A program made the translations under genes and the position numbers. Positions 1,489-46,583 of a DNA stretch of 46,583 nt are shown here, in pieces; the stretch's first letter is position 1, and every line of letters starts with the position of its first letter. Origin of the DNA: a virus; the IMG/VR virus record IMGVR_UViG_3300004222_000002, positions 1-46,583 of that record, one strand, 5' to 3'. Under the pieces are notes generated by a model. The model did not search any database, was not told where the DNA came from, and saw only the letters and a list, made by a program, of their open reading frames with translations.

Positions 1489-2181
1489 TTATTGTTTAAG
1501 TAAAGCTAGTTGGTCTGAGGGCAGCAGATTCTCATCCTCGGGCTTTTCCGCTCCGCTCCGAAGCACGCCGAGCGGCGGCAGCCTGATCAGCGCATCAGCC
1601 TGGGCGGCCGTTCCGTGCAGCCAGGCATCCCAGTCCTGCTGCTCAAGCATCACGACGCCGCGCTTTTCCTTGCCGGGCCGGTGCATCAGCGCGAGCACTG
1701 GGTGGCCGTCTGCAGGCTGCGTGATCATGGTGTAGTTCGGGACAAGCTCCCCGGTCTCCGGGTCCGTCCATTCGCTATAGAGCCCGGCCAGGGCCGCCGG
1801 CTGCCCGTCCGCGCGCTGGAACGACCACCACACATTGCGCGACCCGAGGCCCCAATACGGCTCGATCCACGACTCGGCGGGGATCAGACAGCGCTGGCCG
1901 GCTCGCCATGCAGGCGCGAACGTCCAAGACTTCGCGATGGTCTCGCGCCGGGCATTGTTCGTTGACATGGGCGTCCCGTCGCGGGTAGTCGGCCGGCGCG
2001 TGGGAGAGCTGCGCGGGATCATCCCCCACTGCCCCACCTCAATCTCGCCACCGGGCTTGATGTACGGCCCCAACGCCAGCGGCGTAACGTGTGGCTTCCA
2101 CCACCTGTTCGGCGCCTGTCGGCCGATCCGAAAAACGCGCTCGATCTCGGTCTCGCGTGGGGTGTTGTATCGGTTGCAGAT
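1489..2181 (-). CDS. SRAP (SOS-response associated peptidase, YedK/DUF159 family), apparently with a non-canonical ATC start
   Basis: The frame reads (I)CNRYNTPRETEIERVF...NARRET...RCLIPAESWIEPYW...MHRPGKEKRGVVML, the SRAP layout with Cys at position 2. There is no ATG/GTG/TTG between the in-frame stop at 2224-2226 and the Cys codon. AGGAGG (2187-2192) lies 5 nt before ATC-TGC. Confidence 0.7.
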   Translation of the reverse strand: MCNRYNTPRETEIERVFRIGRQAPNRWWKPHVTPLALGPYIKPGGEIEVGQWGMIPRSSPTRRPTTRDGTPMSTNNARRETIAKSWTFAPAWRAGQRCLIPAESWIEPYWGLGSRNVWWSFQRADGQPAALAGLYSEWTDPETGELVPNYTMITQPADGHPVLALMHRPGKEKRGVVMLEQQDWDAWLHGTAAQADALIRLPPLGVLRSGAEKPEDENLLPSDQLALLKQ

Positions 2182-2723: not shown

Positions 2724-2933
2724 TTGCCCATGCACCCGCCGCTGATCTATCCAACTATCTTGCGTATGCACCCCTGGTTCGGCCAGCCGGAAGAGGAATT
2801 GCTGCCTGGCAGGCCAGAGGACTACCGCATCGAGCAGGAGGACAGGGACTGGTTCGTTGTGCGCGGCCCAGGGGGGCGGGTCGTGCACAGCGGCCTCGGC
2901 CCCGTGCAGATATTGCCTGCTCGCCATGCCTGA
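2724..2933 (+). CDS. Hypothetical small protein (69 aa)
   Basis: GAGGAG Shine-Dalgarno 6 nt upstream of the ATG, high GC3, and the stop overlaps the next start (ATGCCTGA). Confidence 0.55.
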   Translation: MPMHPPLIYPTILRMHPWFGQPEEELLPGRPEDYRIEQEDRDWFVVRGPGGRVVHSGLGPVQILPARHA

Positions 2934-3135
2934 CCGGTTCGATTGGGGAGGAGTCCCCACGGCGCATGGTTGGTACGCCGTCGTGCTGCAACCGGGTCCC
3001 CTGCCTTACCCTGGCGCACGCTTTTGGAGGGGGAGCGCATGGGACAGCCCGCGCGGCATCGTCGCTCACCATGGGCCGCATGCGGACGCAGAGGAGGCTT
3101 TAGATTGGGCTGAGGAACGCTGCCCCGAAGAATGA
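2926..3135 (+). CDS. Hypothetical small protein (69 aa, MPDRFDWGGV...)
   Basis: The internal ATG of ORF 2857..3135 overlaps the previous stop. High GC3. The gene ends at a terminator hairpin. Confidence 0.5.
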   Translation: MPDRFDWGGVPTAHGWYAVVLQPGPLPYPGARFWRGSAWDSPRGIVAHHGPHADAEEALDWAEERCPEE

Positions 3136-3157
3136 AAAAGCCCCGCACTGCGGGGCT
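3135..3157. terminator. Bidirectional hairpin terminator
   Basis: AGCCCCG-cactg-CGGGGCT (3139-3157). On the minus strand it is followed by TTTTT, ending the CRISPR-like transcript. It also closes the plus-strand small-ORF cluster. Confidence 0.65.
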
Positions 3158-3358
3158 TACTACCTACACGGTAGCGAACAGCCAGGCAGCTTGCGTGGCC
3201 CATTACCTCGATTTCTAAGCTGCCTGTTCGGCAGCGATCCCGCACTGGGCTTCAAGTCCCGCTAGGCGATTCTCTTAGCTGCCTATGCAGCAGCAAACGA
3301 ACTGCAGTACGTGCCGTCTTTTAAGTTCATTTTCTGAGCTGCCTATGCGGCAGGGCCT
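3152..3358 (-). CRISPR. Type I-F-like mini-CRISPR array: 4 repeats (28 nt) and 3 spacers (32, 31, 32 nt); no cas genes in the window
   Basis: Minus-sense repeats: AGGCCCTGCCGCATAGGCAGCTCAGAAA (3358-3331), GTTTGCTGCTGCATAGGCAGCTAAGAGA (3298-3271), GATCGCTGCCGAACAGGCAGCTTAGAAA (3239-3212), GTTCGCTACCGTGTAGGTAGTAAGCCCC (3179-3152, degenerate terminal repeat). Compare the canonical I-F repeat GTTCACTGCCGTATAGGCAGCTAAGAAA. Phase is 59-60 bp. Confidence 0.65.
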
Positions 3359-3606
3359 CAAACACTAACACACTGTCCAGCTTCCACCAGCGGCTCTAGC
3401 CCCGCATCGATGGCCACACACGCCAGCGCCAGGATCCTCGGCAATGGTCCCTCTTTGCCCAGGTAGTTCGCATAGGTCGCACGGCTGACGCCAAGGGCCA
3501 AAGCCGCCGTGACATAGGTGAAGCCGTGGCGTAGCTGCCAGGCCCGGAGATCATTTGCGGTCACGCTGGTCACTCGTTGGGTTGGCGCGCTCCACCCGCT
3601 CAACAA
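3358..3606 (-). CDS. Small HTH DNA-binding protein, Aca1-like (start uncertain: TTG 3606, GTG 3573 or GTG 3564)
   Basis: HTH segment FTYVTAALALGVSRATYANYL. The length and the C-terminal ...ILALACVAIDAG... resemble anti-CRISPR-associated Aca1 as I recall it. The stop codon overlaps the first CRISPR-like repeat by 1 nt. Confidence 0.6.
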   Translation of the reverse strand: MLSGWSAPTQRVTSVTANDLRAWQLRHGFTYVTAALALGVSRATYANYLGKEGPLPRILALACVAIDAGLEPLVEAGQCVSV

Positions 3607-3742
3607 TCCAATCGGTCAGCTTCTTCCCCTCGGCCCTGGACTGCTGCACCCAGCGCGCCTTACGCTCCTGAGTGACCCGCAGTGGCAGTGGCACGAGGCC
3701 CGAATTCTCGGGCGCCTCTCGATCGGATTGGTTGCTGCTCAT
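3551..3742 (-). CDS. Small ribbon-helix-helix-like protein (63 aa); excisionase/regulator or other small effector
   Basis: LPLRVTQERKARWVQQSRAEGKKLTDWIVERV fits a beta-strand/helix/helix RHH pattern. Its ATG overlaps the integrase stop (ATGA). Confidence 0.55.
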   Translation of the reverse strand: MSSNQSDREAPENSGLVPLPLRVTQERKARWVQQSRAEGKKLTDWIVERVERANPTSDQRDRK

Positions 3743-4710
3743 GGCGCGAGTTTATCGCCAGACGATGGGAGCAGAACGTACTTCCAAAGGTGTCGTGTCA
3801 GCCCTCTGTCGTCCTCATACACCTCCGTCATGCTGGCTTTCGCGTGCCCGAGCAACGTTTGAGTATCAACGCCTTGGTGCCGGTACAGACGCGCCGACAG
3901 CGAGCGGATCTCATGAAAGGTTGGCGGCGTGCCCTCACCCGTATACGGAGCTGCAGCTTGTTGCGCAAGCCAGAAGCGATGCGAGACAGTCTGCGGATGG
4001 AGCCGACGATGCGGCCGAGCCCCGGTGCGCAGCAACCACTCGCCATCAAGCGGCTTGTATTCGAGGCAGTCCCGGACTACTTCAGCAACAGTGATATTCA
4101 GGGCATCCAGGCGCAGGGCCAGCGGGATGGCCACGCGAGCGCCCGTCTTTTGCTGCTCAACAAAGAGATGCCCGTCTCTGACGTCGCCTCGCCCGAGTCT
4201 CACCAAGTCCGCACGCCGTTGCCCGGTCACTAAAGCCAGCCGCAGGGCGATGGCGAACCACGCAGGCATGCGCTCGCGACTGTAGTCATGGATCGCCGTG
4301 AACTGTTCCAGCGTCAACCGAGATCGCCGCACAGGCGCCGGCAGGCGCTTGACATGCAGAGCTGGGTTAGCGTCAACCCATCCCTCCATGAGCGCGACAT
4401 TGAACATCGCGCGCAGCTCCTGCAGCGCATGACGGGAAGTGACATGCAGGCCGAGATCGTGAATGCTCTTGACGAGCCGCCCTATTTCCCAGGGCCGAAT
4501 GCTGCGCAGCTCCCGCCCCTGAAACGCCGGCCGCAGGTGTTGCAACACGCCCCGCTTGTTCTGGAGCGTCAGCGGATTGAGGGCCATGTTGTTCAGCGCA
4601 GCGAAGTAGCAAGCCTCCATATCCTCGAACGTTTGAACAGGCGAAATGCCCTTCAACTCGGGAGCGCGGACACGCCGCAACGTGGATAAAACGCGGTCAA
4701 AAATTGTCAT
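3739..4710 (-). CDS. int: Tyrosine recombinase/integrase, lambda-Int-like (int1)
   Basis: Catalytic signature present: ...TGQRRADL..., HEIRSLSARLY, LLGHAKASMTEVY. ATG 4710 is preceded by AAGGAA. The ORF-track start at 4764 is probably too far upstream. Confidence 0.85.
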   Translation of the reverse strand: MTIFDRVLSTLRRVRAPELKGISPVQTFEDMEACYFAALNNMALNPLTLQNKRGVLQHLRPAFQGRELRSIRPWEIGRLVKSIHDLGLHVTSRHALQELRAMFNVALMEGWVDANPALHVKRLPAPVRRSRLTLEQFTAIHDYSRERMPAWFAIALRLALVTGQRRADLVRLGRGDVRDGHLFVEQQKTGARVAIPLALRLDALNITVAEVVRDCLEYKPLDGEWLLRTGARPHRRLHPQTVSHRFWLAQQAAAPYTGEGTPPTFHEIRSLSARLYRHQGVDTQTLLGHAKASMTEVYEDDRGLTRHLWKYVLLPSSGDKLAP

Positions 4711-4766
4711 CGTGTTCGTTCCTTGAGATGCCCCCACGAGCCATTCGGCCGAGGGGGCGAACACAA

Positions 4767-5195
4767 TTACTCCGCGTCTGCCGGCAGGTCGATGCTGATA
4801 CCCAAACGCACGGCGTGGGCCAGCCGCACCAGTCCCGCGATTTCACCGCTACCAGCAAGCAGCTCGACAGGCAAACCATTGGCTTTCGCAACGGCCTTGC
4901 GCTCGCTCAACGCTGCGACGGTGCGCAATTGCCCGGTGCGAGGATCAATGAATTTCATCTTGTAGTCCCAGCCACGCGCCTTGCGGTGATGAACCTCTTC
5001 ACCAATCAGCAGGAAGTCGCCTGCGAACAGTTCCTCGTCACCCTGCTTGAGGTATGCGCCAGGCACATCGTTGGCGCCAAGCACCTTGTTCGGCACCGGG
5101 AGAACAACGCCGCCGCGGACAACCTTTGCCCAAAAACGGCAACGATAGTCAACGGGCTTTACGGAGACGGAGACGGAGACGGATTGAATCGACAT
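4767..5195 (-). CDS. Hypothetical protein (142 aa)
   Basis: High GC3. ATG 5195 has an AAGGAT Shine-Dalgarno 6 nt upstream. No recognisable motif. The N-terminus contains an SVSVSVSV run. Confidence 0.55.
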   Translation of the reverse strand: MSIQSVSVSVSVKPVDYRCRFWAKVVRGGVVLPVPNKVLGANDVPGAYLKQGDEELFAGDFLLIGEEVHHRKARGWDYKMKFIDPRTGQLRTVAALSERKAVAKANGLPVELLAGSGEIAGLVRLAHAVRLGISIDLPADAE

Positions 5196-5267
5196 GATGT
5201 GATCCTTCATGAAGGAAGCCCGGAACCGCCGGGGCGGATGCAGCGCTGTGCTGCCATGGGTGGAAAT

Positions 5268-5288
5268 ATAGTCTAATTTTTAGACTAT
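5268..5288. promoter_or_regulatory. 9-3-9 perfect inverted repeat (candidate operator or terminator) in an AT-rich intergenic region
   Basis: ATAGTCTAA-ttt-TTAGACTAT, located between the 64-aa gene stop (5332) and the 142-aa gene start (5195). Confidence 0.45.
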
Positions 5289-5331
5289 CGCAAGGCTTTT
5301 GAATTTGTTTTGATGGCGCCCCACCCTATCG

Positions 5332-5526
5332 TCAATGGCTCCTTATCACTGCCTGTAGCTTGGCCTGAGCTGACCGCCCAACCCACCTGCATGGGCCGTT
5401 GCCAGCTGCTGCCTCCTGATCCCAGCGCGCCACGATCTGGGCCTCTGTCCAGCCCTTGGCTGCGAGGTAAGCGTGGTCTTCGGCGTCGTATTGACGGTGC
5501 GTCTTGATCTGATTCGTGGCGGTCAT
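5332..5526 (-). CDS. Hypothetical small protein (64 aa)
   Basis: AGGAG Shine-Dalgarno 5 nt upstream of the ATG. High GC3. Confidence 0.55.
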   Translation of the reverse strand: MTATNQIKTHRQYDAEDHAYLAAKGWTEAQIVARWDQEAAAGNGPCRWVGRSAQAKLQAVIRSH

Positions 5527-5584
5527 GGCGTGCTCCTATTGCGTTGAATCGATTAACGCTCTGTCACCGGCACCAGCCAAGCAC

Positions 5585-5620
5585 TGGCCCGTGTCCGACT
5601 GCGCAGTCGGACACGGGCCA
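5585..5620. repeat. 36-bp perfect palindrome (strong hairpin or dimeric binding site)
   Basis: TGGCCCGTGTCCGACTGC|GCAGTCGGACACGGGCCA, between the Dam stop (5643) and the 64-aa gene start (5526). No U-tract on either strand. Confidence 0.6.
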
Positions 5621-5642
5621 GCGCTTGACTCGGCCGCGAAAC

Positions 5643-8400: not shown

Positions 8401-10292
8401 GCGATGGACCTTTCGACATCGAGGGCCTGACGGATGGACGGCGCGTCGACCGAAACAGTGATGCCTCGCACCAGCCCCCGCCACGTCTCCTCAGGCTCCT
8501 GCACCTCGATCAGGTAGCCAGGCAGGATCAGCCCAGGCCGGGTGCCGCCTGTGAGCAGAGGCACCGTGATGGGCTGCTGGTGCGTGATCGCCGACGCGGC
8601 CAGCACGGATTGCCCTCGCATCCGGGCCGCGACTACCTCAGTGATCAGCGCATCCGTGATCTGTGGGGCGAGCCGGTCGCCCGCAGAGCCTGCACGCGTG
8701 ACATGGCCCAATGGGCGCCCCGGCGCCGTGCCTGCGATGTAGACGGCATTGAAGTGGGCCGCCTGGGCCGGCTGCAGGCTGTCGGCGGTGATGATCTGCC
8801 CAGGCATGACAACGTCTGCAGGCGCGCCGGCCCAGGCCCACGGAAGATGGGGAAAACGGGGTGCGATCTGCAGCCGGGGCTCCGACCTGTGGCTGCGCAC
8901 CACGGCGCCGGCAGCCTCTGCGATCCGCTGGGCCACCGACAACGGCGTGCCGCTGTGGCTCCACACGTTCTCTGGCACCAGCCAGTCGTCGATCTGCCAA
9001 TCCAGGCCGATGCCCGTGAGGTCGAGCGCATCGAGCACCAGCTGCTGGGCAGTGCGCGGCACGGCGCTGGTCCAGTCCGTATCCGCAAACGCAGGCGCGG
9101 ACAGCAGCGAGGTGATGCTGCGGCCGGTGAGCTGAACAGCATGCTCGCCAAACTTGCGCGTGCGCGATGGTGGGTCGACCAGAAACACCCACTGTATGCC
9201 ATCGATGGTGACGCGGATCTGCTGCGGCACGCCCTGCCGTGGCGCCAGTTGGTCCAGCAGCGAAAGCTTGCCCGAGGCCGTCATGGTCCAGCCGTACTCG
9301 TCGTCGTTCGTGGTGATGCTGATGGTTTGCAGCGGCACGCGCTCCAAGTTGGGCAGCAGCACCGCATCAATGGTGTGGACAGTCATGTAGACCCTCAATA
9401 GCGGAATGACATAGCGCGGCGGCTCGGGGTTGACGCCGCCCTTGCAGCAGAAAAAGACCAGCTCGGTGCTGGCGGTCGAGGCCTGCGAGAACACCAACTC
9501 CACGGCGCCCCCAGGCGGCGGCACATAGCACGGCGGTGGTTTGGGGGGATCGACCGGCCGGCCCGGGGTGATGCCCGGCGGCGGCACCATGGCGTCCTGA
9601 TACCGCGCACCGCCCATGACCACGGCCAGCTGCAGGGCGTCGCCCATGCTGCTGGTGTGCCAGGCACACCGCTGCAGACCGTCGACGAAGGCCTGCACGG
9701 TGGCGCGGCGCACGCGGATGGCTTCTTGGAATCGCTGCAGCACAGCCGCCTGGGAGGCCAGGGCGTTGTCCATGCCCTGGCGCGTGACCAGGTGGACGCG
9801 GATGGCTTCCTGCCAGGCCTGGGCGGTTATGCCAGCCACGGCCAGGGCGTTGCCTATGCCCTGGCGCGTGTCCAGGCGCAGGCGCTGTGAGTCCTGCCAG
9901 CGGTGCACGGTGGCCGCGCCGGCAGCCATGGCCTGCCCGCCACCGATGCGCGTGGTGCTGCTGGCCACGGCCGACTGCTGGTAGACCGACACGAGGGCGC
10001 CACGCGCAGCTGCGGCCTCTTGGAAGGCAGACAACGTGCCGCCCACGGCCGGCCGGTCGGTGCGCGTCTGGTAGACAGCGCCGAGGGCGACCCGCGCGCC
10101 AGGCAGCCGGATGGCAGTGGCAGCTGTCTTGCGCCGCAGGGCACGGATGCCCACGCGGGCGCCTGGCAGGCGGATGGCCGCCCGCGCGACCGCGTCCTGC
10201 CCCGAGCCCGAATCGTCCTCATTGCCGAACACCAGCTCGTTGGGCGAACCACCGGCCAGCGGGCGACGGAAGATCAGCTCGATGATCGCCAT
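8397..10292 (-). CDS. Putative tail fiber/host-recognition protein (631 aa) with internal repeats
   Basis: Position at the distal end of the tail module. Internal repeats are present (AIRLPGARV twice, QEAIRV twice), plus a proline-rich linker. Confidence 0.5.
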   Translation of the reverse strand: MAIIELIFRRPLAGGSPNELVFGNEDDSGSGQDAVARAAIRLPGARVGIRALRRKTAATAIRLPGARVALGAVYQTRTDRPAVGGTLSAFQEAAAARGALVSVYQQSAVASSTTRIGGGQAMAAGAATVHRWQDSQRLRLDTRQGIGNALAVAGITAQAWQEAIRVHLVTRQGMDNALASQAAVLQRFQEAIRVRRATVQAFVDGLQRCAWHTSSMGDALQLAVVMGGARYQDAMVPPPGITPGRPVDPPKPPPCYVPPPGGAVELVFSQASTASTELVFFCCKGGVNPEPPRYVIPLLRVYMTVHTIDAVLLPNLERVPLQTISITTNDDEYGWTMTASGKLSLLDQLAPRQGVPQQIRVTIDGIQWVFLVDPPSRTRKFGEHAVQLTGRSITSLLSAPAFADTDWTSAVPRTAQQLVLDALDLTGIGLDWQIDDWLVPENVWSHSGTPLSVAQRIAEAAGAVVRSHRSEPRLQIAPRFPHLPWAWAGAPADVVMPGQIITADSLQPAQAAHFNAVYIAGTAPGRPLGHVTRAGSAGDRLAPQITDALITEVVAARMRGQSVLAASAITHQQPITVPLLTGGTRPGLILPGYLIEVQEPEETWRGLVRGITVSVDAPSIRQALDVERSIA

Positions 10293-14239: not shown

Positions 14240-16102
14240 TCAGGCGCCCCAGCGCCGATACTCCACACCGCCGATCGACTTGACGCCCGCCGTGTACTCG
14301 GCATCGGTCCAGACCACGCCATCGACGTCAGGCGGCACGTAGTGATTGCCTTCGGGCGAGCTGGTGGCGCCGACCTCGATGTAGACGGCCCCGCCGCTGG
14401 CGCGCGCCCCGCCCTGAGCCATGTACTTGCCCGTGGTCGAGCCATCGGAAAGCGGCACGCGCGAGGTGATGACGGGCGCAGGCGCCGGGGGAACCTGGGG
14501 CAGGTAGCTGAATTTGCCGCTGCCGCCGTTTTTGGAGACCGAGGTGCCACCGGATGAGGCGCCGGAGCTGGCCGAGAGATTGCGCACGGTGATCCATCCC
14601 ACGGACACGGTGCCGGGCGCAGGGATGGTGTCCAGGGTGATCGCGCCGTAGCCGCCTGCGTCGAGGTTGACTAGGACGTTTTTGTTGATGACCACCGCGT
14701 AGTCGTACTCGATCAAGAACTGCCCGCCCGCATCGATCATGAACTGAGGGCGCAGCAGCAGCGCGGCCGAGGCGTAGTTGATTTCGCCTGTTGCATCGCC
14801 CTGTAGCGCACCCTGGCCGTTGCCTGTGGCTGTGCGCACGACGCCGCCAGAGGGCCATTTGATGACCAGCGAGCCCGGCTTGATGCCCTGGTGCGGCAGG
14901 CGCATGGCGTGCTCGGGCAGCCGCCAGCCCGTGGCACTGGAGCGGTTCACGAAGGCCGAGGCCTCACCCCACTGGAAGATGATGGAGCTGCCCACGTCTG
15001 GCAGTGCGGGCAGCGTCACGGACACCGAGCCGTTCGCATAGTTGACGGTGCCCACGGCCGATCCCGTCAGCTCCCCCTGGCCGTTGTCGGATGCGGTGTA
15101 CCAGACGCCCATCACCTGGAACGAGACCACCAGCGTGTTTGGCGCCGGGAACGGCTTGAGGATAGCCACCCAGCTGAAACTGCGGTTTTCCTGGCCTACT
15201 TTGATACGGCGCGTGTGCGGCGCATTGGGCACGCGGATCTCGCGAGGCGAGGTGGCGAGCACCAGTTGCCGCACGCCGGCCGGGCGTTGGTCCAGCGCCG
15301 CAGTCTCGGTGCGGGAGTTGGGCACCAGCTGGGTGTAGATGCTGGCCACCCGCAGCATGCTCTCGCCCAACTGCGCCGCTGCCGTCAGAGGCTGAGCGCC
15401 GTAGAAGCTGGCCGCATCTGCGACGGTGGTGTCCCGGATGCGGGTCTTGGATGGGTCCGCCGCATAGCTACGGTTGGGTGGCGACCCCGGGAAGGCGCTG
15501 CGCAGCCGGGGGGTGATCTCGCACGTGGTGACGCTGGCGGTGTAGTCCGTGTAGCCGCCGCCGCTGGAATAGGAAAACTGCAGGGTCTCGGTTTCGGCGC
15601 GCAGCACACGCACATACTGCAGCACCTGGCTGGCCTGCCCTTCGTTGTAGACGAGGATCAGTGTGCGGCCGATGGTCGGCGCTGGCGTGCCGGGCCGGTG
15701 GAAGATCATGATCGAGCCCTGCCCCTGGACGTGATTCTCGAGCAGGTAGCCGCCCCACTCCGTGCCCGGTATCAGGTAGGCCGCAATAGCGGCAGCAATC
15801 TCTGTACGGCGCGCGAATACGCCGCAGGGCGCGATGGTGATGGACACATTCGGATCGTTGGGCACGGCCGAGACAATGATGTTGGTGTCCATCAGCGGCT
15901 CGGTGGTGGGCGTTTGCACGGCCGCGTGCACCTGTCGGATGGACACGTCGCCGCCGGCCCGGTCCACTTCTGTGATGTCCTCGAAGACGCCATTGCTCTT
16001 GCCCCAGGGGATGACGTTGCCCGTGGGGCCGCCGCCGCCGTTGGCGTCATCGGTCATCACCTTGGATTCGAGTAGGCGGATGTCGCCGTCTTTGATGGTC
16101 AT
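14240..16102 (-). CDS. Large tail/distal-tail structural protein (620 aa)
   Basis: ATGA-coupled to the upstream gene. Position downstream of the tape measure. Confidence 0.55.
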   Translation of the reverse strand: MTIKDGDIRLLESKVMTDDANGGGGPTGNVIPWGKSNGVFEDITEVDRAGGDVSIRQVHAAVQTPTTEPLMDTNIIVSAVPNDPNVSITIAPCGVFARRTEIAAAIAAYLIPGTEWGGYLLENHVQGQGSIMIFHRPGTPAPTIGRTLILVYNEGQASQVLQYVRVLRAETETLQFSYSSGGGYTDYTASVTTCEITPRLRSAFPGSPPNRSYAADPSKTRIRDTTVADAASFYGAQPLTAAAQLGESMLRVASIYTQLVPNSRTETAALDQRPAGVRQLVLATSPREIRVPNAPHTRRIKVGQENRSFSWVAILKPFPAPNTLVVSFQVMGVWYTASDNGQGELTGSAVGTVNYANGSVSVTLPALPDVGSSIIFQWGEASAFVNRSSATGWRLPEHAMRLPHQGIKPGSLVIKWPSGGVVRTATGNGQGALQGDATGEINYASAALLLRPQFMIDAGGQFLIEYDYAVVINKNVLVNLDAGGYGAITLDTIPAPGTVSVGWITVRNLSASSGASSGGTSVSKNGGSGKFSYLPQVPPAPAPVITSRVPLSDGSTTGKYMAQGGARASGGAVYIEVGATSSPEGNHYVPPDVDGVVWTDAEYTAGVKSIGGVEYRRWGA

Positions 16103-16518
16103 AGGGTTTCGCTCGCCTCAATAAAGCGCAGCACCAGGCTGCAGTAGTAGTCGCTGTCTTCGGGGTCGCTGTACTCGATGACCGACTGCATCGCGATGGC
16201 CCGCGTCTCCTCGGCGTCGCCATGGTCGAAGACGACCTCGAATTCCTCGGCCAGGATGCGCAGCGTCATGCGCAGCCCGGGAATGCCGGACCAGGCCTTG
16301 AGCGTGCGCAGCGTCGCTCGCGAGATCCACGCGCTATCGCCGTCGCCCTGCAGCGTGATCGGCTGGCCCCCGTTGCGGGCCATGGCATCGATGACCAGCG
16401 TGCCGAAGATGCCGCGCTCGGTCTTCTGGGAGACCTTCGACCAGGTCAGCTCATCCACCCAGATCAGGTCACGCGGCAGCTCCAGCACCTGGGCGCCGTT
16501 GGACAAATAAATGCTCAT
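16099..16518 (-). CDS. Minor tail protein (139 aa)
   Basis: Lies immediately downstream of the tape measure gene. High GC3. Confidence 0.5.
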   Translation of the reverse strand: MSIYLSNGAQVLELPRDLIWVDELTWSKVSQKTERGIFGTLVIDAMARNGGQPITLQGDGDSAWISRATLRTLKAWSGIPGLRMTLRILAEEFEVVFDHGDAEETRAIAMQSVIEYSDPEDSDYYCSLVLRFIEASETL

Positions 16519-22290: not shown

Positions 22291-22725
22291 TCAGGCCTTC
22301 CCGCCCTTGGCCTTGTCGTCAGCGAGGCGTTCGGCTTCGGCCTTCTCCGTAGCAGCCTTCTCGGCAGCCAAGCGTTCGGCTTCGGCCTTCTCCGTGGCAG
22401 CCTTCTCGGCAGCCAGACGCTCGGCTTCAGCCTTCTCCGTAGCAGCCTTCTCGGCGGCCACGCGCTCGGCTTCGGCCTTCTCCGCAGCAGCCTTCTCGGC
22501 AGCCAGGCGCTCGGCTTCGGCCTTGTCCGCAGCAGCCTTCTCGGCCGCCAGGCGTTCGGCTTCGGCCTTCTCGGCTGCGGCACGGGCCGCGTCGATGGCC
22601 GGGTCTTCAAGCACGCCCAACGCGACCAGTGCCGCACCCTCGTCGGCCTTGAGCGTGATGGTGCTGTCCACGTTGTGGCGCTTCCCGTCATGCTTGACGG
22701 GCGACAGTACGGTGTACTTCGGCAT
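22291..22725 (-). CDS. Repeat protein (144 aa): 45-aa N-terminal domain plus (EKAEAERLAAEKAAT)n
   Basis: ATG 22725 lies just after the capsid stop. The C-terminal ~90 aa are near-perfect 15-aa repeats. Confidence 0.6.
   Translation of the reverse strand: MPKYTVLSPVKHDGKRHNVDSTITLKADEGAALVALGVLEDPAIDAARAAAEKAEAERLAAEKAAADKAEAERLAAEKAAAEKAEAERVAAEKAATEKAEAERLAAEKAATEKAEAERLAAEKAATEKAEAERLADDKAKGGKA
22327..22578. repeat. 45-bp tandem repeat, ~5.6 copies, in-frame inside CDS 22291..22725
   Basis: The unit gcgttcggcttcggccttctccgtagcagccttctcggcagccaa recurs with a few substitutions. Confidence 0.85.
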
Positions 22726-32259: not shown

Positions 32260-33918
32260 TCACTGACCTCCCTCTGGCTCATGCCCTTCGGGGGAAGGGG
32301 CGCCGCTGCCGTATCCCATGTACTTGCGCAGTGCATCGCCGAAGTCACGCACCGCAGTGGTGGCCCACTCGCTCTCTGTCATGCGCTGGTCGCCCTCGCC
32401 CAGAATCGGATCGGTCACCAAGAACATTCGCTCGGTCTTCTTCGCGGCACCAGGCCGCGTGACATTCATTGGCTTGACCCGTGCCGGGTACCCCTGCCCC
32501 TCAGAGAAACGCAGGACCATTGGGGTGAAGCGCGTTTGCTTCTCGGGGTAGCGATCGCCGGATCGCTGGCACCACTTGAGGTAGGCGGCATAGGCCTGGC
32601 TGACGGCGCAGGCGTTGTAGGGCAGGTCCAGCTCGCCGGCCTGCCACTCGCTCCAGAAGATCTCGGGGCTCTTGCGGTTGATCTCGATCAGCGCCGTCTT
32701 GGCTTCCGTCATGGGGGCCGGGGCGTAGGGGTGGAAGTCCCCCAGCGGGTACTTGAGCAGGTAGTCGTAGAACGCGGCCACGCCCCCGTTGTCGCGCCAC
32801 TCGCCCAGCTTCTTGTAGTACTCGATGTCCTTGGCCCGGGGCGTGTACACCACCAGGTAGCGCCGGTCCGAGTTGTCCAGGGCGAGCGGCTGCAGCTCGT
32901 TCGACAGGAACGCGATGTTCATGTGGTTCTTCTCCTCGCGCCGCGTCAGATTCTTGGGATTGATCTGCACGGTCGGCGAGGTGATCAGCGCCTTCAGCCG
33001 GTTCTTGTTGTGAACCAGCTCGGCCCTGCTGGACACTTCGTCGCCCACCACGAACAGCTTGCAGCTGCGCCAATCGTTGAACTTGTCCTCCAGCTCATCC
33101 TGCCCCACCAGCGCCCCGTACTTGCCGTAGATGGCGACCATGATGTCGAACAGAAAGTTCTTGCCCGCGCCTTCGTCGCCGTGCATCACCACGGCCGTGC
33201 GCAGCTTGGCACCCGGGTGCTGCAGCGGGTAGGCCAACCAGCGCAGCAGCCAATGCATGATGTCGCCGGTGTCGGCCTCATCTGGCGTGGCCCGGCTGGT
33301 CAGGTAGGAGATCAGCTCCAGCACGGGGGTCACGTCGCCGGCCTCGGGAACCATGGCCATGCCGTCGAACAGATTCACCGTGGTGACCGGGTCGGCCTTC
33401 ATCGTCGGATCGAAGACCACGTCCTCCAGCCGCACCGTCTTGCGCTTCTCATTGGCCTTCCACATGCGGACCATTTCGGCGCCGTGGGCGTGGCCCATGT
33501 TGGCGATCTTCATGATCATCCGCTCGGCACCGTCCCATACGGTGTCCGTGCCGTAGATCAGCACGAAGTTCTCGGCCAGGTGGTTGAACTTCCCCCAATC
33601 GACCGTCTTCTCCTTTTTCTTGCCCTGCACTGGCGGATCGGCCTTGTCGGCAGGGGCCTTGCCACCCCCATCCCCAGAGTCGCGCGCAGCTGCGCTCACT
33701 TTGGGGGGGCGGGGGGGCGACGAACGAGATGGCTCGGCCTGCGCCTCGCCTGGCGGCACGCGCACACCTGACTGAAAGTCGACGTGCACGACAGAGTTAT
33801 CCAGCGGCGCTGGCGCGCCGAGAGCCGACGAAGCATGCGACTCTTCGGTCGCATGCGGTGGCGGCGGGGGCGGGAACGAGGCCCCGCCAGCGTCGATATC
33901 GTCGGTGTGCTCAGCCAT
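32260..33918 (-). CDS. SF3 primase-helicase (D5/P4-alpha C-terminal, DUF5906-like NTPase)
   Basis: Walker A HGDEGAGKNF and Walker B LFVVGDE. The D5_N-like upstream region and low-complexity N-terminus are typical of phage/plasmid primase-helicases. Confidence 0.75.
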   Translation of the reverse strand: MAEHTDDIDAGGASFPPPPPPHATEESHASSALGAPAPLDNSVVHVDFQSGVRVPPGEAQAEPSRSSPPRPPKVSAAARDSGDGGGKAPADKADPPVQGKKKEKTVDWGKFNHLAENFVLIYGTDTVWDGAERMIMKIANMGHAHGAEMVRMWKANEKRKTVRLEDVVFDPTMKADPVTTVNLFDGMAMVPEAGDVTPVLELISYLTSRATPDEADTGDIMHWLLRWLAYPLQHPGAKLRTAVVMHGDEGAGKNFLFDIMVAIYGKYGALVGQDELEDKFNDWRSCKLFVVGDEVSSRAELVHNKNRLKALITSPTVQINPKNLTRREEKNHMNIAFLSNELQPLALDNSDRRYLVVYTPRAKDIEYYKKLGEWRDNGGVAAFYDYLLKYPLGDFHPYAPAPMTEAKTALIEINRKSPEIFWSEWQAGELDLPYNACAVSQAYAAYLKWCQRSGDRYPEKQTRFTPMVLRFSEGQGYPARVKPMNVTRPGAAKKTERMFLVTDPILGEGDQRMTESEWATTAVRDFGDALRKYMGYGSGAPSPEGHEPEGGQ

Positions 33919-44660: not shown

Positions 44661-45024
44661 CACCGAAATCCTGACCGTCGAAGACCTGGCCGAGCTGTTT
44701 GCCTGCGACAAAGAAACAGCAGCAGCGCGCGTTAAGTGCGGCGATCTGCCTGGCGTGAAGGTGGGCCGTGGCTGGATCATCCCGCGCCAGGCCCTCTTCG
44801 AGCGCCTCAACGAGATGGCGCGCGAAGAGGCCGCAGCCAGGCGCGCGCAGCTGGGCGCAACGCGCGATGCAGCCCAGCTGCGCGGCAAGGCCGCTCAGGC
44901 CGCTTCAGCGGCCCCCACGGCTGCACCGCCGGCCGCACTCCTGCCGAGCAGCACCCCAAAGGCAAGGGGCCGCCAGCGGCGAGTACCGCCAGCCCTGCCG
45001 CCGCTGGCTGCGGCCGGCTGCTAA
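44647..45024 (+). CDS. Excisionase-like HTH protein (125 aa)
   Basis: LTVEDLAELFACDKETAAARVKCGDLPGVKVGRGWIIPRQAL is a MerR/excisionase-type HTH. Convergent with int2. Confidence 0.6.
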   Translation: MTSADTEILTVEDLAELFACDKETAAARVKCGDLPGVKVGRGWIIPRQALFERLNEMAREEAAARRAQLGATRDAAQLRGKAAQAASAAPTAAPPAALLPSSTPKARGRQRRVPPALPPLAAAGC

Positions 45025-46235
45025 GACCACATCCGGGCCGCCAGATCTTCCGCACGGAAGCTGGCGTACCGCTGGGCCATCTTGCTGCCAGGCGCCCAGC
45101 CCATGATTCGATGGATCTCTGCCTCGCGGAACATCCAGTCCCCTGTCTTGGTACGCATCTCGAACCACAGGCACGTCGCCTCATGCCGCAGGTCGTGCTC
45201 CGTCAGCCCGTCGCACTGTGCATAGCCAAACAGGCTGGCGAACCGATTGGAAAGCCGCGACGAGACCCTGGCCAGCTCCTGCGCATCCTCTTCCCCCGTC
45301 CACCACGGAAACACCAGCTGCTGCTCGCCCTCATCCGGCAGGGCCTGCAGGTAGGCCTCCAGCACGCCGAAAAGCTCAGGCCGCATGGGCACCTCGCGGT
45401 ACTTGACCTTGCCGTGCCACTGCTTGCTGGCCTTGGCCCGGATCACCCGCGTCGCCAGGCTGAACTGCCCACGCCGGAGCGTGTAGGCCTCGCGCAGCCG
45501 CAGCCCCGTGTAGAGGATCAGTAGGAACATGGCGCGCAGGGCTGGCGCGTCGTCCAGCTTGATGGTGCGCTCGCGGTCCGGCCGCCGCTCGCCGGCCAGC
45601 ACCCGCTCGATGCGGTCCAGCTCGCCCGGCAGCAGCCGGCGCTCGCGCTGGACATCTTCCTTGGCAACCTTGGGCTTGGCCTGGTCGCCGGCCGCAGCGT
45701 TGAGCGCCTCGATGTCGGCCCGGTCCTTCGGGGTGTATGTGGCCGCACCCTTGGGCAACAGGCGCAGCGGGTTGCCCACCATGGCATCGGGATGCTGCCG
45801 CAGCCACCAGTCCAGGCAGCGTGACAGCGAGCCCACGCGCTTGCGGATGGTGCCCGGCGAGAAATTGCGCTCCAGCTTGAGGCTGCGCACCCAGGCCTCG
45901 GCCCATTTGTACGTGAGGTCGGCGATCAGCACCTTGCCCACCTCATCGACCAGCAGCTCGAGGACCGGGATGTCGGTAGCCGCCGGCTGGCCTGTGTTGA
46001 TCCAAGCCACCAGCACGAATCGCAGCCGCTCAGTGGGCTTCGGGGCTGAAGCCGTCTGCTGCACCAGGCCCGCCGGCACCACGCCGGCAGCGAGCAGCTG
46101 GTCGACCTGCTGGCCGTACTGCTCGGCCTCGGCCTGGTCGTCGAACGTCATATAGACCGGCTTCGGCAGCAGCTTGCTGCGAATCGTCAGCTCATATCGC
46201 CCTCGGGGCGTTTTGCGCACACTCGACAAACTCAC
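45021..46235 (-). CDS. int: Tyrosine recombinase/integrase adjacent to tRNA-Cys (int2); start GTG 46235 or TTG 46229
   Basis: Catalytic residues in TGLRLREAY, HDLRHEATCLW and MGWAPGSKMAQRYAS. The gene starts 178 bp from the tRNA 3' end. Confidence 0.85.
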   Translation of the reverse strand: MSLSSVRKTPRGRYELTIRSKLLPKPVYMTFDDQAEAEQYGQQVDQLLAAGVVPAGLVQQTASAPKPTERLRFVLVAWINTGQPAATDIPVLELLVDEVGKVLIADLTYKWAEAWVRSLKLERNFSPGTIRKRVGSLSRCLDWWLRQHPDAMVGNPLRLLPKGAATYTPKDRADIEALNAAAGDQAKPKVAKEDVQRERRLLPGELDRIERVLAGERRPDRERTIKLDDAPALRAMFLLILYTGLRLREAYTLRRGQFSLATRVIRAKASKQWHGKVKYREVPMRPELFGVLEAYLQALPDEGEQQLVFPWWTGEEDAQELARVSSRLSNRFASLFGYAQCDGLTEHDLRHEATCLWFEMRTKTGDWMFREAEIHRIMGWAPGSKMAQRYASFRAEDLAARMWS

Positions 46236-46404: not shown

Positions 46405-46458
46405 GAATTTTTGGAGGCGCGAACCAGAGTCGAACTGGTCTAACCGGATTTGCAATCC
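46405..46458 (-). repeat. att direct repeat, right copy (inside the intact tRNA-Cys)
   Basis: 53/54 identity with 1368-1421. Confidence 0.85.
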
Positions 46459-46528: not shown

Positions 46529-46583
46529 TGGAGCGGGAAAACGGGTTCGAACCGTCGACCTCAACCTTGGCAAGGTTGCGCTC
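46529..46583 (-). tRNA. tRNA-Gly(GCC), 3' 55 nt (5' end cut by window edge)
   Basis: Reverse complement ends ...CTTGCCAAGGTTGAGGTCGACGGTTCGAACCCGTTTTCCCGCTCCA. Same gene sequence as the copy at 1-60. Confidence 0.9.

Follow-up and report, generated by a model that had tools for sequence, protein, structure and literature searches.

The DNA considered here is the IMG/VR virus record IMGVR_UViG_3300004222_000002, whose 46,583 nucleotides were analysed as one stretch, called the window in the following. The element of interest is a short array of CRISPR (clusters of regularly interspaced short palindromic repeats) units of type I-F on its minus strand, at 3358-3152. The array is carried by a Delftia prophage and consists of four 28-nt repeats (R1 to R4) and three spacers (S1 to S3), arranged with a phase of 59-60 nt. 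The spacers are 32, 31 and 32 nt long and mutually dissimilar, and their length and the constant phase are those of a type I-F CRISPR array. Upstream, the array abuts a gene for a helix-turn-helix (HTH) protein, such that the first A of R1 is the A of the TGA stop codon of that gene (3360-3358). Downstream, R4 runs directly into an intrinsic terminator (3158-3138). This arrangement had been proposed in a first-pass annotation of the window. The sequence, together with a repeat finding that recovers three repeat copies at 59- and 60-nt spacing, bears out the four phased minus-strand units with their 31-32-nt spacers, the start on the stop codon, and the terminator, for which a 9-bp stem and a T-run are seen. 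The three spacer sequences given in that annotation are also exact.

The repeats are of type I-F. The Rfam family RF01317 (CRISPR-DR4, the I-F repeat) matches R1, R2 and R3 on the minus strand, with the scores listed in Table 1. The gathering score of 35 bits is reached by R3 only (E = 3e-6), R1 and R2 are under it with E <= 4e-4, and R4 has no Rfam match. A hairpin of the Cas6f type, with a 5-bp stem and a 5-nt loop as expected for I-F repeats, is found in all four units. The 8-nt handle, CUNAGAAA in its I-F form, which would make up the 5' end of CRISPR RNAs (crRNAs) 1, 2 and 3, is carried by R1 (CUCAGAAA), R2 (CUAAGAGA, with GAGA) and R3 (CUUAGAAA). Compared to the PA14 type I-F repeat, R1, R2 and R3 are identical at 22, 23 and 23 of 28 positions, respectively, in agreement with the 22-23 positions counted earlier for three of the units, and R4 is identical at 17 of 28. 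Of the motif CTGCC-N5-GGCAGCTNAGARA, which combines hairpin and handle, the 46.6-kb window contains three copies, where 0.06 are expected, and none of 100 shuffled sequences reached three.

In the minimum-free-energy fold of the array (z = -2.5), all four 5-bp/5-nt hairpins and the terminator are present, and both the U-G wobble of R2 and the CUACC/GGUAG stem of R4 form. The latter stem is kept through a compensatory double change, from G-C to A-U, which is identical in 24 of 24 related copies (see below). The handle is lost in R4 and kept in R1-R3, so that the earlier description of the hairpins, with the wobble and the compensation, and of a handle missing in the terminal unit only, is correct.

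We have also considered the case where the array is an artefact of a coding repeat. This was rejected because the 59-60-nt phase is not a multiple of 3 throughout; the overlapping open reading frames (ORFs) at 3066-3245 and 2822-3148 are unsupported. As a separate observation, gene callers leave the array region empty or overlay ORFs on it, and annotation pipelines miss the array.

For the first spacer, of which the window carries the allele called S1a, a target could be identified. IMG/VR was scanned for CC followed by the seed of S1a, with positions 6 and 12 left free, and seven stretches were obtained, four of them matching at 31-32 of 32 positions and three being chance matches at 17-19 of 32. 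Among the former, the match is perfect in contigs L148 and L150, while one mismatch is found in L146 (position 12) and L147 (position 30). Ten more public contigs that encode the same target protein (L155-L164) all contain a 32/32 protospacer with CC. In total, 14 contigs carry the protospacer, 12 at 32/32 and 2 at 31/32, which is the kind of target expected for a mini-array. In all 14, 5'-CC, the I-F protospacer-adjacent motif (PAM), is located directly upstream on the spacer-identical strand. The spacer search and PAM check that had been proposed in the first-pass annotation give thus 12 perfect and 2 near-perfect protospacers. Every sixth position of the guide, including 12 and 30, does not pair in I-F complexes. 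The two mismatches are at such non-pairing positions.

The protospacer is the 3' end of a gene for a 127-aa protein of the family phrog_4408, a gene that has the tape-measure gene on one side and a large tail gene on the other. The exact target protein is annotated as 'MULTISPECIES [Delftia]' and is recorded from D. acidovorans, D. tsuruhatensis, D. deserti, Delftia sp. BR1 and further Delftia sp. From its genes for GemA, Mor, Mu gp36 and Com, the target phage can be identified as a Mu-like transposable phage. With the window prophage it has in common a tail module in synteny, the amino-acid identity being 35-56%, and a Dam methylase, for which it is 63-76%. It can also be observed that the targeted phages (L165-L169) end in a Com zinc-ribbon gene and a D12 Dam methylase gene, and that their tail genes have the same order as those of the window. 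The shared tail and methylase modules mean that the two phage families exchange late modules despite their different integration strategies. No DNA similarity of the target phage to GenBank phages was found, and the examined parts of the target phages contain no I-F repeats, that is, no reciprocal array.

The array does not target its own prophage. The phrog_4408 gene of the window itself (16099-16518) differs at the S1a target site, and a second copy of any of the spacers is found neither in the window nor in the related prophages. There is thus no self-target site in the window.

A set of 24 contigs with the surrounding cassette at 95-100% identity, coming from isolates, metagenome-assembled genomes (MAGs) and metagenomes, was used for comparison. 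In all 24 cassettes, the spacing, the hairpins, S2 and S3 (with 1-2 single-nucleotide polymorphisms, SNPs) and the terminator are kept, and R1-R4 are retained. The first spacer, on the other hand, varies. Three unrelated alleles of exactly 32 nt each are found, namely S1a (ATGAACTTAAAAGACGGCACGTACTGCAGTTC, in the window), S1b (TCGAAATCCCGGCACAGGTCAATGTGACGTAC) and S1c (AAAATGAAGTGTCCGGCGCGGTTAAGCAAATT), and in contigs L016 and L018 (1501-2100 in each) S1 is absent, which gives a two-spacer allele. The leading repeat of the latter, AGGCCCTGCCGCATAGGCAGCTCAGAGA, is an exact hybrid with the 5' part of R1 and the 3' end of R2, and is therefore the product expected of recombination within the shared core GCATAGGCAGCTCAG. 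The variation is polarised to the leader end, with S1 varying and S2 and S3 conserved, as it is in CRISPR arrays. Since R1 differs from R2, the turnover of S1 is not a plain insertion by Cas1-Cas2/3, which would duplicate R1; from the sequences, an exchange of S1 by recombination with other arrays is more likely.

For the other spacers, the searches gave less. A BLAST search of S1a, S2 and S3 against GenBank phages returned weak matches only, which were judged to be due to chance with the exception of one lead for S2. At 26 of 31 positions, and with a CC PAM, this spacer agrees with the gene for the major capsid protein in Stenotrophomonas Menderavirus phages; of its five mismatches, four are at third positions of codons. 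Relative to this gene, S2 has an in-frame TAG at spacer position 6, and the true target is therefore probably an unsequenced relative. In IMG/VR, neither a codon-degenerate S2 pattern with PAM nor S3 has a match. The exact S2 sequence is not present there either, which means that the window is not in the searched copy of the database. The PAM-plus-seed scans with S1b and S1c gave chance matches only (18-22 of 32) in IMG/VR, and none in metagenome contigs.

The host and the prophage can be described as follows. D. acidovorans, including strain CCUG 274B, is the recorded source of the proteins encoded in the cassette and next to it. The Delftia assemblies with the cassette include GCA_000411195.1, GCA_003505835.1 and GCA_032108945.1. 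The window is a prophage of ~45 kb at tRNA-Cys, bounded by a 54-bp direct repeat (1368-1421 and 46405-46458) that is the 3' part of the tRNA-Cys gene and constitutes the attachment site (att). Its genes include those for a gpA-type terminase, a portal protein, a tape measure, tail proteins, ParB, a primase/helicase-like protein and two methylases. A 404-aa integrase (45021-46235, minus strand) adjoins the tRNA-Cys att, and the 341-aa integrase of the cassette is at the opposite end. In agreement with the earlier statement that there is no cas gene within 46 kb, none was found in the window by PADLOC on the 100 ORFs of >= 150 aa, where only methyltransferases are among the best 25 of 38 families. 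An att-bounded prophage with terminase, portal and integrase, and with no cas gene found, is the location expected for a virus-borne mini-array.

According to published tables, D. acidovorans SPH-1 (NC_010002.1) has a complete I-F locus, CAS-TypeIF[1345861;1355340], with an adjacent array of ~3.5 kb and a self-targeting spacer. In the same kind of tables, three Delftia species have I-F self-targeting loci and one Delftia phage carries an AcrIF8 homologue. A PA14 Csy4 sequence served only to locate cas6f in the loci that were examined. The first-pass annotation had set beforehand what would speak against the array, namely repeats that are not typed as I-F or score no better than shuffled sequence, a host lineage without a I-F system, and spacing and hairpins that are not conserved in related prophages. 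None of these sequence-based outcomes was obtained.

Some further observations on the prophage should be mentioned. The ends of the window, 1-39 and 46545-46583, are identical over 39 nt and, when joined, rebuild an intact tRNA-Gly(GCC) beside tRNA-Cys. A contig closed to a circle in this way would include about 1.4 kb of host DNA, with an M48 peptidase gene (210-992), between the att copies. From the sequence, the circle is most likely an assembly closure through the repeated tRNA-Gly gene and not a true phage circle. ARAGORN calls a tRNA-Cys of 89 nt at 32857-32945 (plus strand), inside and antisense to the ORF of the primase/helicase-like protein (32260-33918); the call is probably either spurious or that of an unusual phage tRNA. 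In the structural-gene region, a 45-nt tandem repeat (5.8 copies, 90% identity, 15-nt sub-period) is found at 22310-22572, probably a repetitive Ala/Glu/Lys-rich protein segment. Beside att, a gene for an SOS-response-associated peptidase (SRAP; 1489-2073, minus strand) encodes 194 aa here and 159-241 aa in related contigs, a spread that suggests truncation or frameshifts at the prophage end.

The array is part of an accessory cassette of ~2.5 kb, at about 3112-5630, between the terminal Dam-methylase gene of the phage and the cargo genes near att. On the minus strand, the order is palindrome, 64-aa ORF, promoter, 147-aa ORF, integrase, gene for a ribbon-helix-helix (RHH) protein, HTH gene, array and terminator (Table 1). 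The integrase, RHH and HTH genes directly precede the array, as had been described earlier. The integrase is named tyrosine-type recombinase/integrase in D. acidovorans records. Two relatives, L003 and L002, diverge from the window at about 5625-5634, that is, at the palindrome, and carry other DNA at the cassette site, without a second integrase there. The palindrome could be a late-operon terminator or a recombination site. Direct repeats flanking the cassette were looked for, but none were found, and the cassette (2900-4800) shows no DNA similarity to GenBank phages. The 64-aa ORF has no match in Pfam, PHROGs, PADLOC or PDB, and the 147-aa ORF has no family or PDB match.

The perfect inverted repeat at the promoter occurs nowhere else in the window, where chance predicts 0 copies, and it has the appearance of an operator to which the RHH or the HTH protein may bind. 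Judging from this layout, the array would be co-transcribed with the 147-aa ORF-integrase-RHH-HTH operon. In gene calls of relatives, opposite-strand genes converge on the terminator.

Table 1. Features of the array and of the cassette that carries it (positions in the window).
Feature	Position	Strand	Remarks
Intrinsic terminator	3138-3158	-	9-bp stem, 7 G-C pairs, T-run; from terminator scan and fold
R4 (terminal repeat 4), GTTCGCTACCGTGTAGGTAGTAAGCCCC	3152-3179	-	Hairpin in first 20 nt; terminator start replaces handle
S3 (spacer 3)	3180-3211	-	32 nt
R3 (repeat 3), GATCGCTGCCGAACAGGCAGCTTAGAAA	3212-3239	-	Closest of the repeats to the I-F consensus; Rfam 35.4 bits
S2 (spacer 2)	3240-3270	-	31 nt
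R2 (repeat 2), GTTTGCTGCTGCATAGGCAGCTAAGAGA	3271-3298	-	Stem closed by U-G wobble; Rfam 30.8 bits
S1 (spacer 1, allele S1a)	3299-3330	-	32 nt; matches Mu-like Delftia prophage family, 5'-CC PAM
R1 (repeat 1), AGGCCCTGCCGCATAGGCAGCTCAGAAA	3331-3358	-	5' end degenerate; hairpin CUGCC-GCAUA-GGCAG intact; Rfam 28.7 bits
HTH protein, XRE-type, 68 aa	3358-3564	-	GTG start overlapping RHH gene; TGA stop 3360-3358
RHH protein, 63 aa	3551-3742	-	Homologue of AcrIF25 N-terminal domain; candidate operon regulator
Tyrosine recombinase/integrase, 341 aa (323 aa in some records)	3739-4764	-	Pfam Phage_integrase (9e-18), Phage_int_M
147-aa ORF	4767-5210	-	ORF list; gene calls in relatives
Sigma-70-like promoter, TTGCGA-17-TATATT	5265-5293	-	Promoter scan; sole one in the cassette
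Perfect 9-bp inverted repeat, ATAGTCTAA-N3-TTAGACTAT	5268-5288		Between/over the promoter hexamers
64-aa ORF, first cassette gene	5332-5526	-	ORF list; called as gene in related contigs
28+28-nt palindrome	5575-5630		93% complementary, arms without gap; just past Dam-methylase stop; upstream cassette boundary

The HTH protein had been labelled as Aca1-like, Aca standing for anti-CRISPR-associated, and this label is not supported by the comparison. The protein has no detectable Aca homology; it has only a match to Pfam HTH_31 at 18.7 bits, under the cut-off of 27, and a weak best match in PDB, 2auw (E = 0.0099), which is a generic XRE-type HTH. No Aca entry is found in PDB at E <= 10, and there is no NCBIfam family match. 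Its placement is not that of Aca1 either, whose gene is directly downstream of an anti-CRISPR (acr) gene. Here, the upstream genes are those of the RHH protein, the integrase and the 147-aa ORF, with no Acr match. Public collections contain exactly this HTH protein, called as a gene of 68 aa. Two homologues that are more distant (65-73% identity) are encoded where other integrated elements end, next to tRNA genes and with no array downstream, and searches by back-translated patterns found no relatives of the gene in GTDB genomes or IMG/VR.

The RHH protein, on the other hand, is related to AcrIF25 (PDB 8jdh/8jdi, E = 1.3e-7). Residues 19-52 align with residues 12-45 of AcrIF25, with 21 of 34 residues identical (62%). 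The match is confined to this N-terminal RHH domain and does not include the C-terminal domain, which binds Cas7f and is a mimic of the Cas7-Cas7 interface, and none of the other cassette ORFs matches AcrIF25. No Acr homologue was found among the small ORFs of the cassette in PDB, PADLOC, PHROGs, Pfam or NCBIfam, and the RHH protein is thus the sole detectable anti-CRISPR link in the cassette. AcrIF25 does not need its N-terminal RHH domain to act as an anti-CRISPR, and the domain is suspected of being a regulator built into the protein; Aca14, a stand-alone RHH protein, represses acr operons via inverted repeats over the -10 box (bioRxiv 10.64898/2026.07.27.740549; PMC13131331). The RHH protein of the cassette may accordingly be a stand-alone regulator of the Aca type. 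The likeness to AcrIF25 and the operator, but no Acr homologue, point therefore to a regulation like that of acr operons without a recognisable Acr protein.

On the basis of these results, we consider it probable that the locus is a cas-less type I-F mini-CRISPR array in a D. acidovorans prophage, which borrows the Cas proteins of the host against a rival phage. Such a hijacking of a host I-F system had been suggested in the first-pass annotation, and it is supported by the I-F repeats, the location in a Delftia prophage, the I-F locus of SPH-1, the S1a protospacers and the conserved array with its turnover of S1. In the mechanism that we propose, the minus-strand array transcript would be the 3' end of the operon, starting from the promoter near 5293-5265 and ending at the terminator. 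Judging from the sequence and the fold, the Cas6f of the host would then cut at the hairpin bases, to yield three crRNAs of ~60 nt, each with a handle, a spacer and a 3' hairpin, which would be loaded into the host Csy complex (I-F Cascade). Next, crRNA 1 would pair perfectly with the CC-PAM protospacer at the 3' end of the phrog_4408 tail-module gene, a pairing site that is seen in the sequence. Finally, the Cas2/3 of the host would destroy the Mu-like phage, either on superinfection or on induction, such that the lysogen is protected and the competitor is removed.

The swap of the leading spacer, which is observed between near-identical cassettes, would retarget the module, and S2 and S3 would be older guides with targets outside the searched databases. 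If this proposal is correct, the repeat of the host is expected to be close to GTTC[A/G]CTGCCGCATAGGCAGCTCAGAAA.

It is important to point out that a number of observations weigh against this proposal. A target has been found for only one of the five distinct spacers, as S1b, S1c, S2 and S3 gave nothing convincing in IMG/VR and the other collections. The repeats are degenerate, with 22-25 of 28 positions identical to the canonical or the Delftia-type repeats, two of them (R1 and R2) score below the Rfam gathering score, and the handle of S2 has GAGA in place of GAAA, which bears on the efficiency of loading. The difference between R1 and R2 makes the turnover of S1 unlike ordinary adaptation by Cas1-Cas2/3. 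With its AcrIF25-like RHH protein and an operator in its promoter, the locus looks like an anti-CRISPR operon. Furthermore, the evidence for a host I-F system consists of the SPH-1 tables, and in the strains that carry the cassette, such as CCUG 274B, the I-F cas genes are presumed. A search for Cas6f homologues with a query from a Burkholderiaceae MAG gave Xanthomonadales-type proteins and no Delftia protein among the 120 matches listed. Transcription of the array, processing by Cas6f, loading and interference are, in addition, steps predicted from the sequence.

These points have to be weighed together with the alternatives. In one of them, the locus is an RNA anti-CRISPR (Racr), that is, a decoy whose abundant repeat hairpins soak up Cas6f and Cas7f and thereby protect the prophage or phage, the spacers being incidental. 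There is a precedent for this in RacrIF1, which is encoded on a prophage, mimics an I-F repeat and binds both Cas6f and Cas7f; candidate racr loci are found clustered with acr genes (PMC10651486). The degenerate repeats of the array, the match of the upstream RHH protein to the RHH domain of AcrIF25 and the palindromic operator in the operon promoter, like in acr-aca operons, are what such a decoy could look like. However, racrs are solitary repeats, with no neighbour within about 100 bp and no guide, whereas four phased repeats and three spacers of the canonical I-F length of 31-32 nt are found here, and the cassette contains no Acr homologue in the five databases named above. Moreover, a rival Delftia phage contains the protospacers of S1a, all 14 of them flanked by a PAM, with a perfect match in 12 and a near-perfect one in 2, and S1 is replaced by other 32-nt sequences with the rest conserved, which is hard to square with irrelevant spacers. 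Because the guide content is specific and is replaced under a length constraint, a pure decoy is unlikely for S1, and as an explanation of the whole locus we judge it improbable. Of the decoy role suggested in the first-pass annotation, what stands is a possible added effect and a possible role for S2 and S3; competition for Cas proteins may be a side effect of the array.

The presence of these two conserved spacers leads to another alternative, in which the units, most plausibly those of S2 and S3, guide the Csy complex by partial, PAM-proximal pairing to silence the host cas/creT promoters. Viral multi-spacer I-F arrays of this type, called Cracr, have degenerate repeats and are linked to AcrIF24, which has a DNA-binding domain (bioRxiv 10.1101/2024.10.29.618823), and regulatory I-F mini-arrays are known from prophages (bioRxiv 10.1101/2023.03.03.530964). 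That S2 and S3 are conserved across the alleles and have no phage target found in IMG/VR, and that regulators resembling those of acr operons are at the locus, is consistent with this possibility. The lengths, on the other hand, do not agree, as CracrIF RNAs mature to 46-49 nt while the array has full spacers of 31-32 nt, not shortened ones, and predicted RNAs of 59-60 nt. In addition, S1a matches a phage perfectly over its full length, and not a promoter in part, no acrIF24 homologue was detected, and S2 looks phage-derived from its capsid-gene match with CC PAM and third-position mismatches. No PAM-plus-seed match of S2 or S3 is found in DNA of Delftia and phages totalling about 0.3 Mb, a set that does not include the Delftia I-F cas locus. 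The canonical length of both spacers and the phage-like origin of S2 thus disfavour a regulatory role for S2 and S3, and for the locus it has, in our estimate, a similarly small chance as the decoy.

The least probable explanation is that the array is an inert relic, a decaying fragment of a host I-F array caught by recombination, with the S1a match left over from host immunity. Mobile elements move isolated I-F arrays in Pseudomonas aeruginosa (PMC13142298), and the degenerate repeats, the truncated terminal repeat, the in-frame stop in S2 relative to the closest capsid-gene match and the SNPs in S2 and S3 between alleles could all be read as decay. Against this, none of the four hairpins has been lost, a compensatory double change maintaining one and a wobble another. 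The three handles that are needed persist, the only missing one being the fourth, for which there is no need, and the array is set exactly between a stop codon and a terminator. The array structure is identical across the 24 contigs, which come from many samples, other sequences of exactly 32 nt have taken the place of S1 at least twice, and the same architecture recurs in a second Delftia element, from strain NBRC 14950 (see below). With hairpins maintained by compensation, a precise stop-to-terminator placement and a recurring design, a relic is therefore unlikely.

A more far-reaching possibility combines several of these elements. The cassette, with its integrase, AcrIF25-related RHH protein, HTH protein and guide array behind a single operator-controlled promoter, could be a self-contained, retargetable exclusion module, in which the leading guide is exchanged through recombination in the repeat core, with spacers stolen from host or rival arrays rather than acquired by Cas1-Cas2/3, and in which S1 serves in interference and S2 and S3 give regulatory or decoy RNAs. 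We regard this extended scenario as rather unlikely as well, though somewhat less so than the decoy or the regulatory array. If it were true, the S2 and S3 RNAs would tune the host I-F system in favour of the prophage.

Returning to the proposal of an array that borrows the host Cas proteins, its category is established. Virus-borne mini-arrays in conflicts between viruses are ascribed to Faure et al. 2019 and Medvedeva et al. 2019 in PMC11656645 and bioRxiv 10.1101/2023.03.03.530964, and prophage-borne mimics of the I-F repeat go by the names Racr and Cracr. The Delftia array has in common with the viral mini-arrays that it is a short, cas-less (pro)viral array with repeats of the CRISPR type published for its host species and a spacer against a related virus of the same host, with a predicted use of host Cas for superinfection exclusion. 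It differs in that it has three spacers instead of one or two, in that its repeats are individually degenerate instead of identical to the host repeat, in that it is fused to an integrase-RHH-HTH operon at the 3' end, the promoter of this operon bearing an operator, and in that near-identical prophages carry different alleles of its leading spacer. New, too, are Delftia as the host genus and the pairing of subtype and host.

The similarities to the other systems are more limited. With RacrIF1 and the Racrs (PMC10651486), the array shares the mimicry of I-F repeats on a prophage, the intact Cas6f hairpin, the lack of cas genes and the adjoining regulators of the anti-CRISPR type. Racrs are, however, solitary and guideless, while the Delftia array is phased and has full-length spacers and a perfect PAM-flanked target, and SRUFinder, as described in the Racr paper, would class the Delftia locus as an array. 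The Cracr arrays (bioRxiv 10.1101/2024.10.29.618823) and the I-F1 regulatory mini-arrays (bioRxiv 10.1101/2023.03.03.530964) are likewise multi-unit I-F arrays with degenerate repeats on prophages, associated with a DNA-binding protein related to anti-CRISPRs. In contrast to the Cracr spacers, which pair partially with host cas/creT promoters, give 46-49-nt RNAs and are linked to acrIF24, the Delftia spacers have 31-32 nt, spacer 1 fully matches a phage gene, and no acrIF24 was found. The isolated I-F arrays of P. aeruginosa (PMC13142298) are also functional-looking arrays on mobile DNA, far from the cas operon, but they have a CRISPR2-like leader, canonical repeats and active adaptation, whereas the Delftia array belongs to a phage and has non-identical repeats and a coding gene in place of a leader. 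Finally, acr-aca operons (bioRxiv 10.64898/2026.07.27.740549; PMC13131331) resemble the cassette in the small DNA-binding proteins at the 3' end of the operon and in the promoter inverted repeat over the -10 region. The Delftia operon differs from them in that no known acr gene or Acr effector domain was found in it, in that it contains an integrase and in that it ends in a CRISPR array.

What is uncommon about the locus is thus the set of three spacers, the divergent repeats, the fusion to the integrase-RHH-HTH operon with its operator, the AcrIF25-related RHH protein and the natural guide alleles. Its value is that of a good starting point for experiments, and not that of a new principle.

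A second orphan I-F mini-array was found in D. acidovorans NBRC 14950 (NZ_BCZP01000038.1, about 9431-9760; L044:1431-1760). It has six repeats close to GTTCACTGCCGCATAGGCAGCTCAGAAA and five spacers, and its last repeat is truncated into a terminator, GGCCCGCCCAGCGGGCCTTTTT. Its first 'spacer' resembles a hairpin followed by a T-run. The neighbouring genes have PHROG hits, which describes a phage-like region, and no cas genes are present within the surrounding 8 kb examined. One of its spacers, N2, gave a single chance match (22 of 32) in IMG/VR. In a scan of GTDB genomes with an I-F repeat pattern that required G at repeat position 5, this orphan array is the only Delftia case among the matches listed. 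Orphan I-F mini-arrays therefore recur in the mobile DNA of Delftia.

Phage mini-arrays have been predicted to turn the CRISPR system of the host on competing phages, but there are very few natural cases with an identified target, and the only experimental validation cited for virus mini-arrays comes from archaeal viruses. The Delftia locus is a bacterial I-F case in which the target is unambiguous, namely a Mu-like prophage found commonly in the same genus. Between the natural alleles only the guide differs, the two-spacer allele can be used as a natural control, and the host can be cultured. A guide array under regulators related to anti-CRISPRs blurs, furthermore, the line between anti-defence RNAs, such as Racr and Cracr, and phage-borne defence. 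In this way, the locus suggests how prophages may shape which other phages a strain can acquire.

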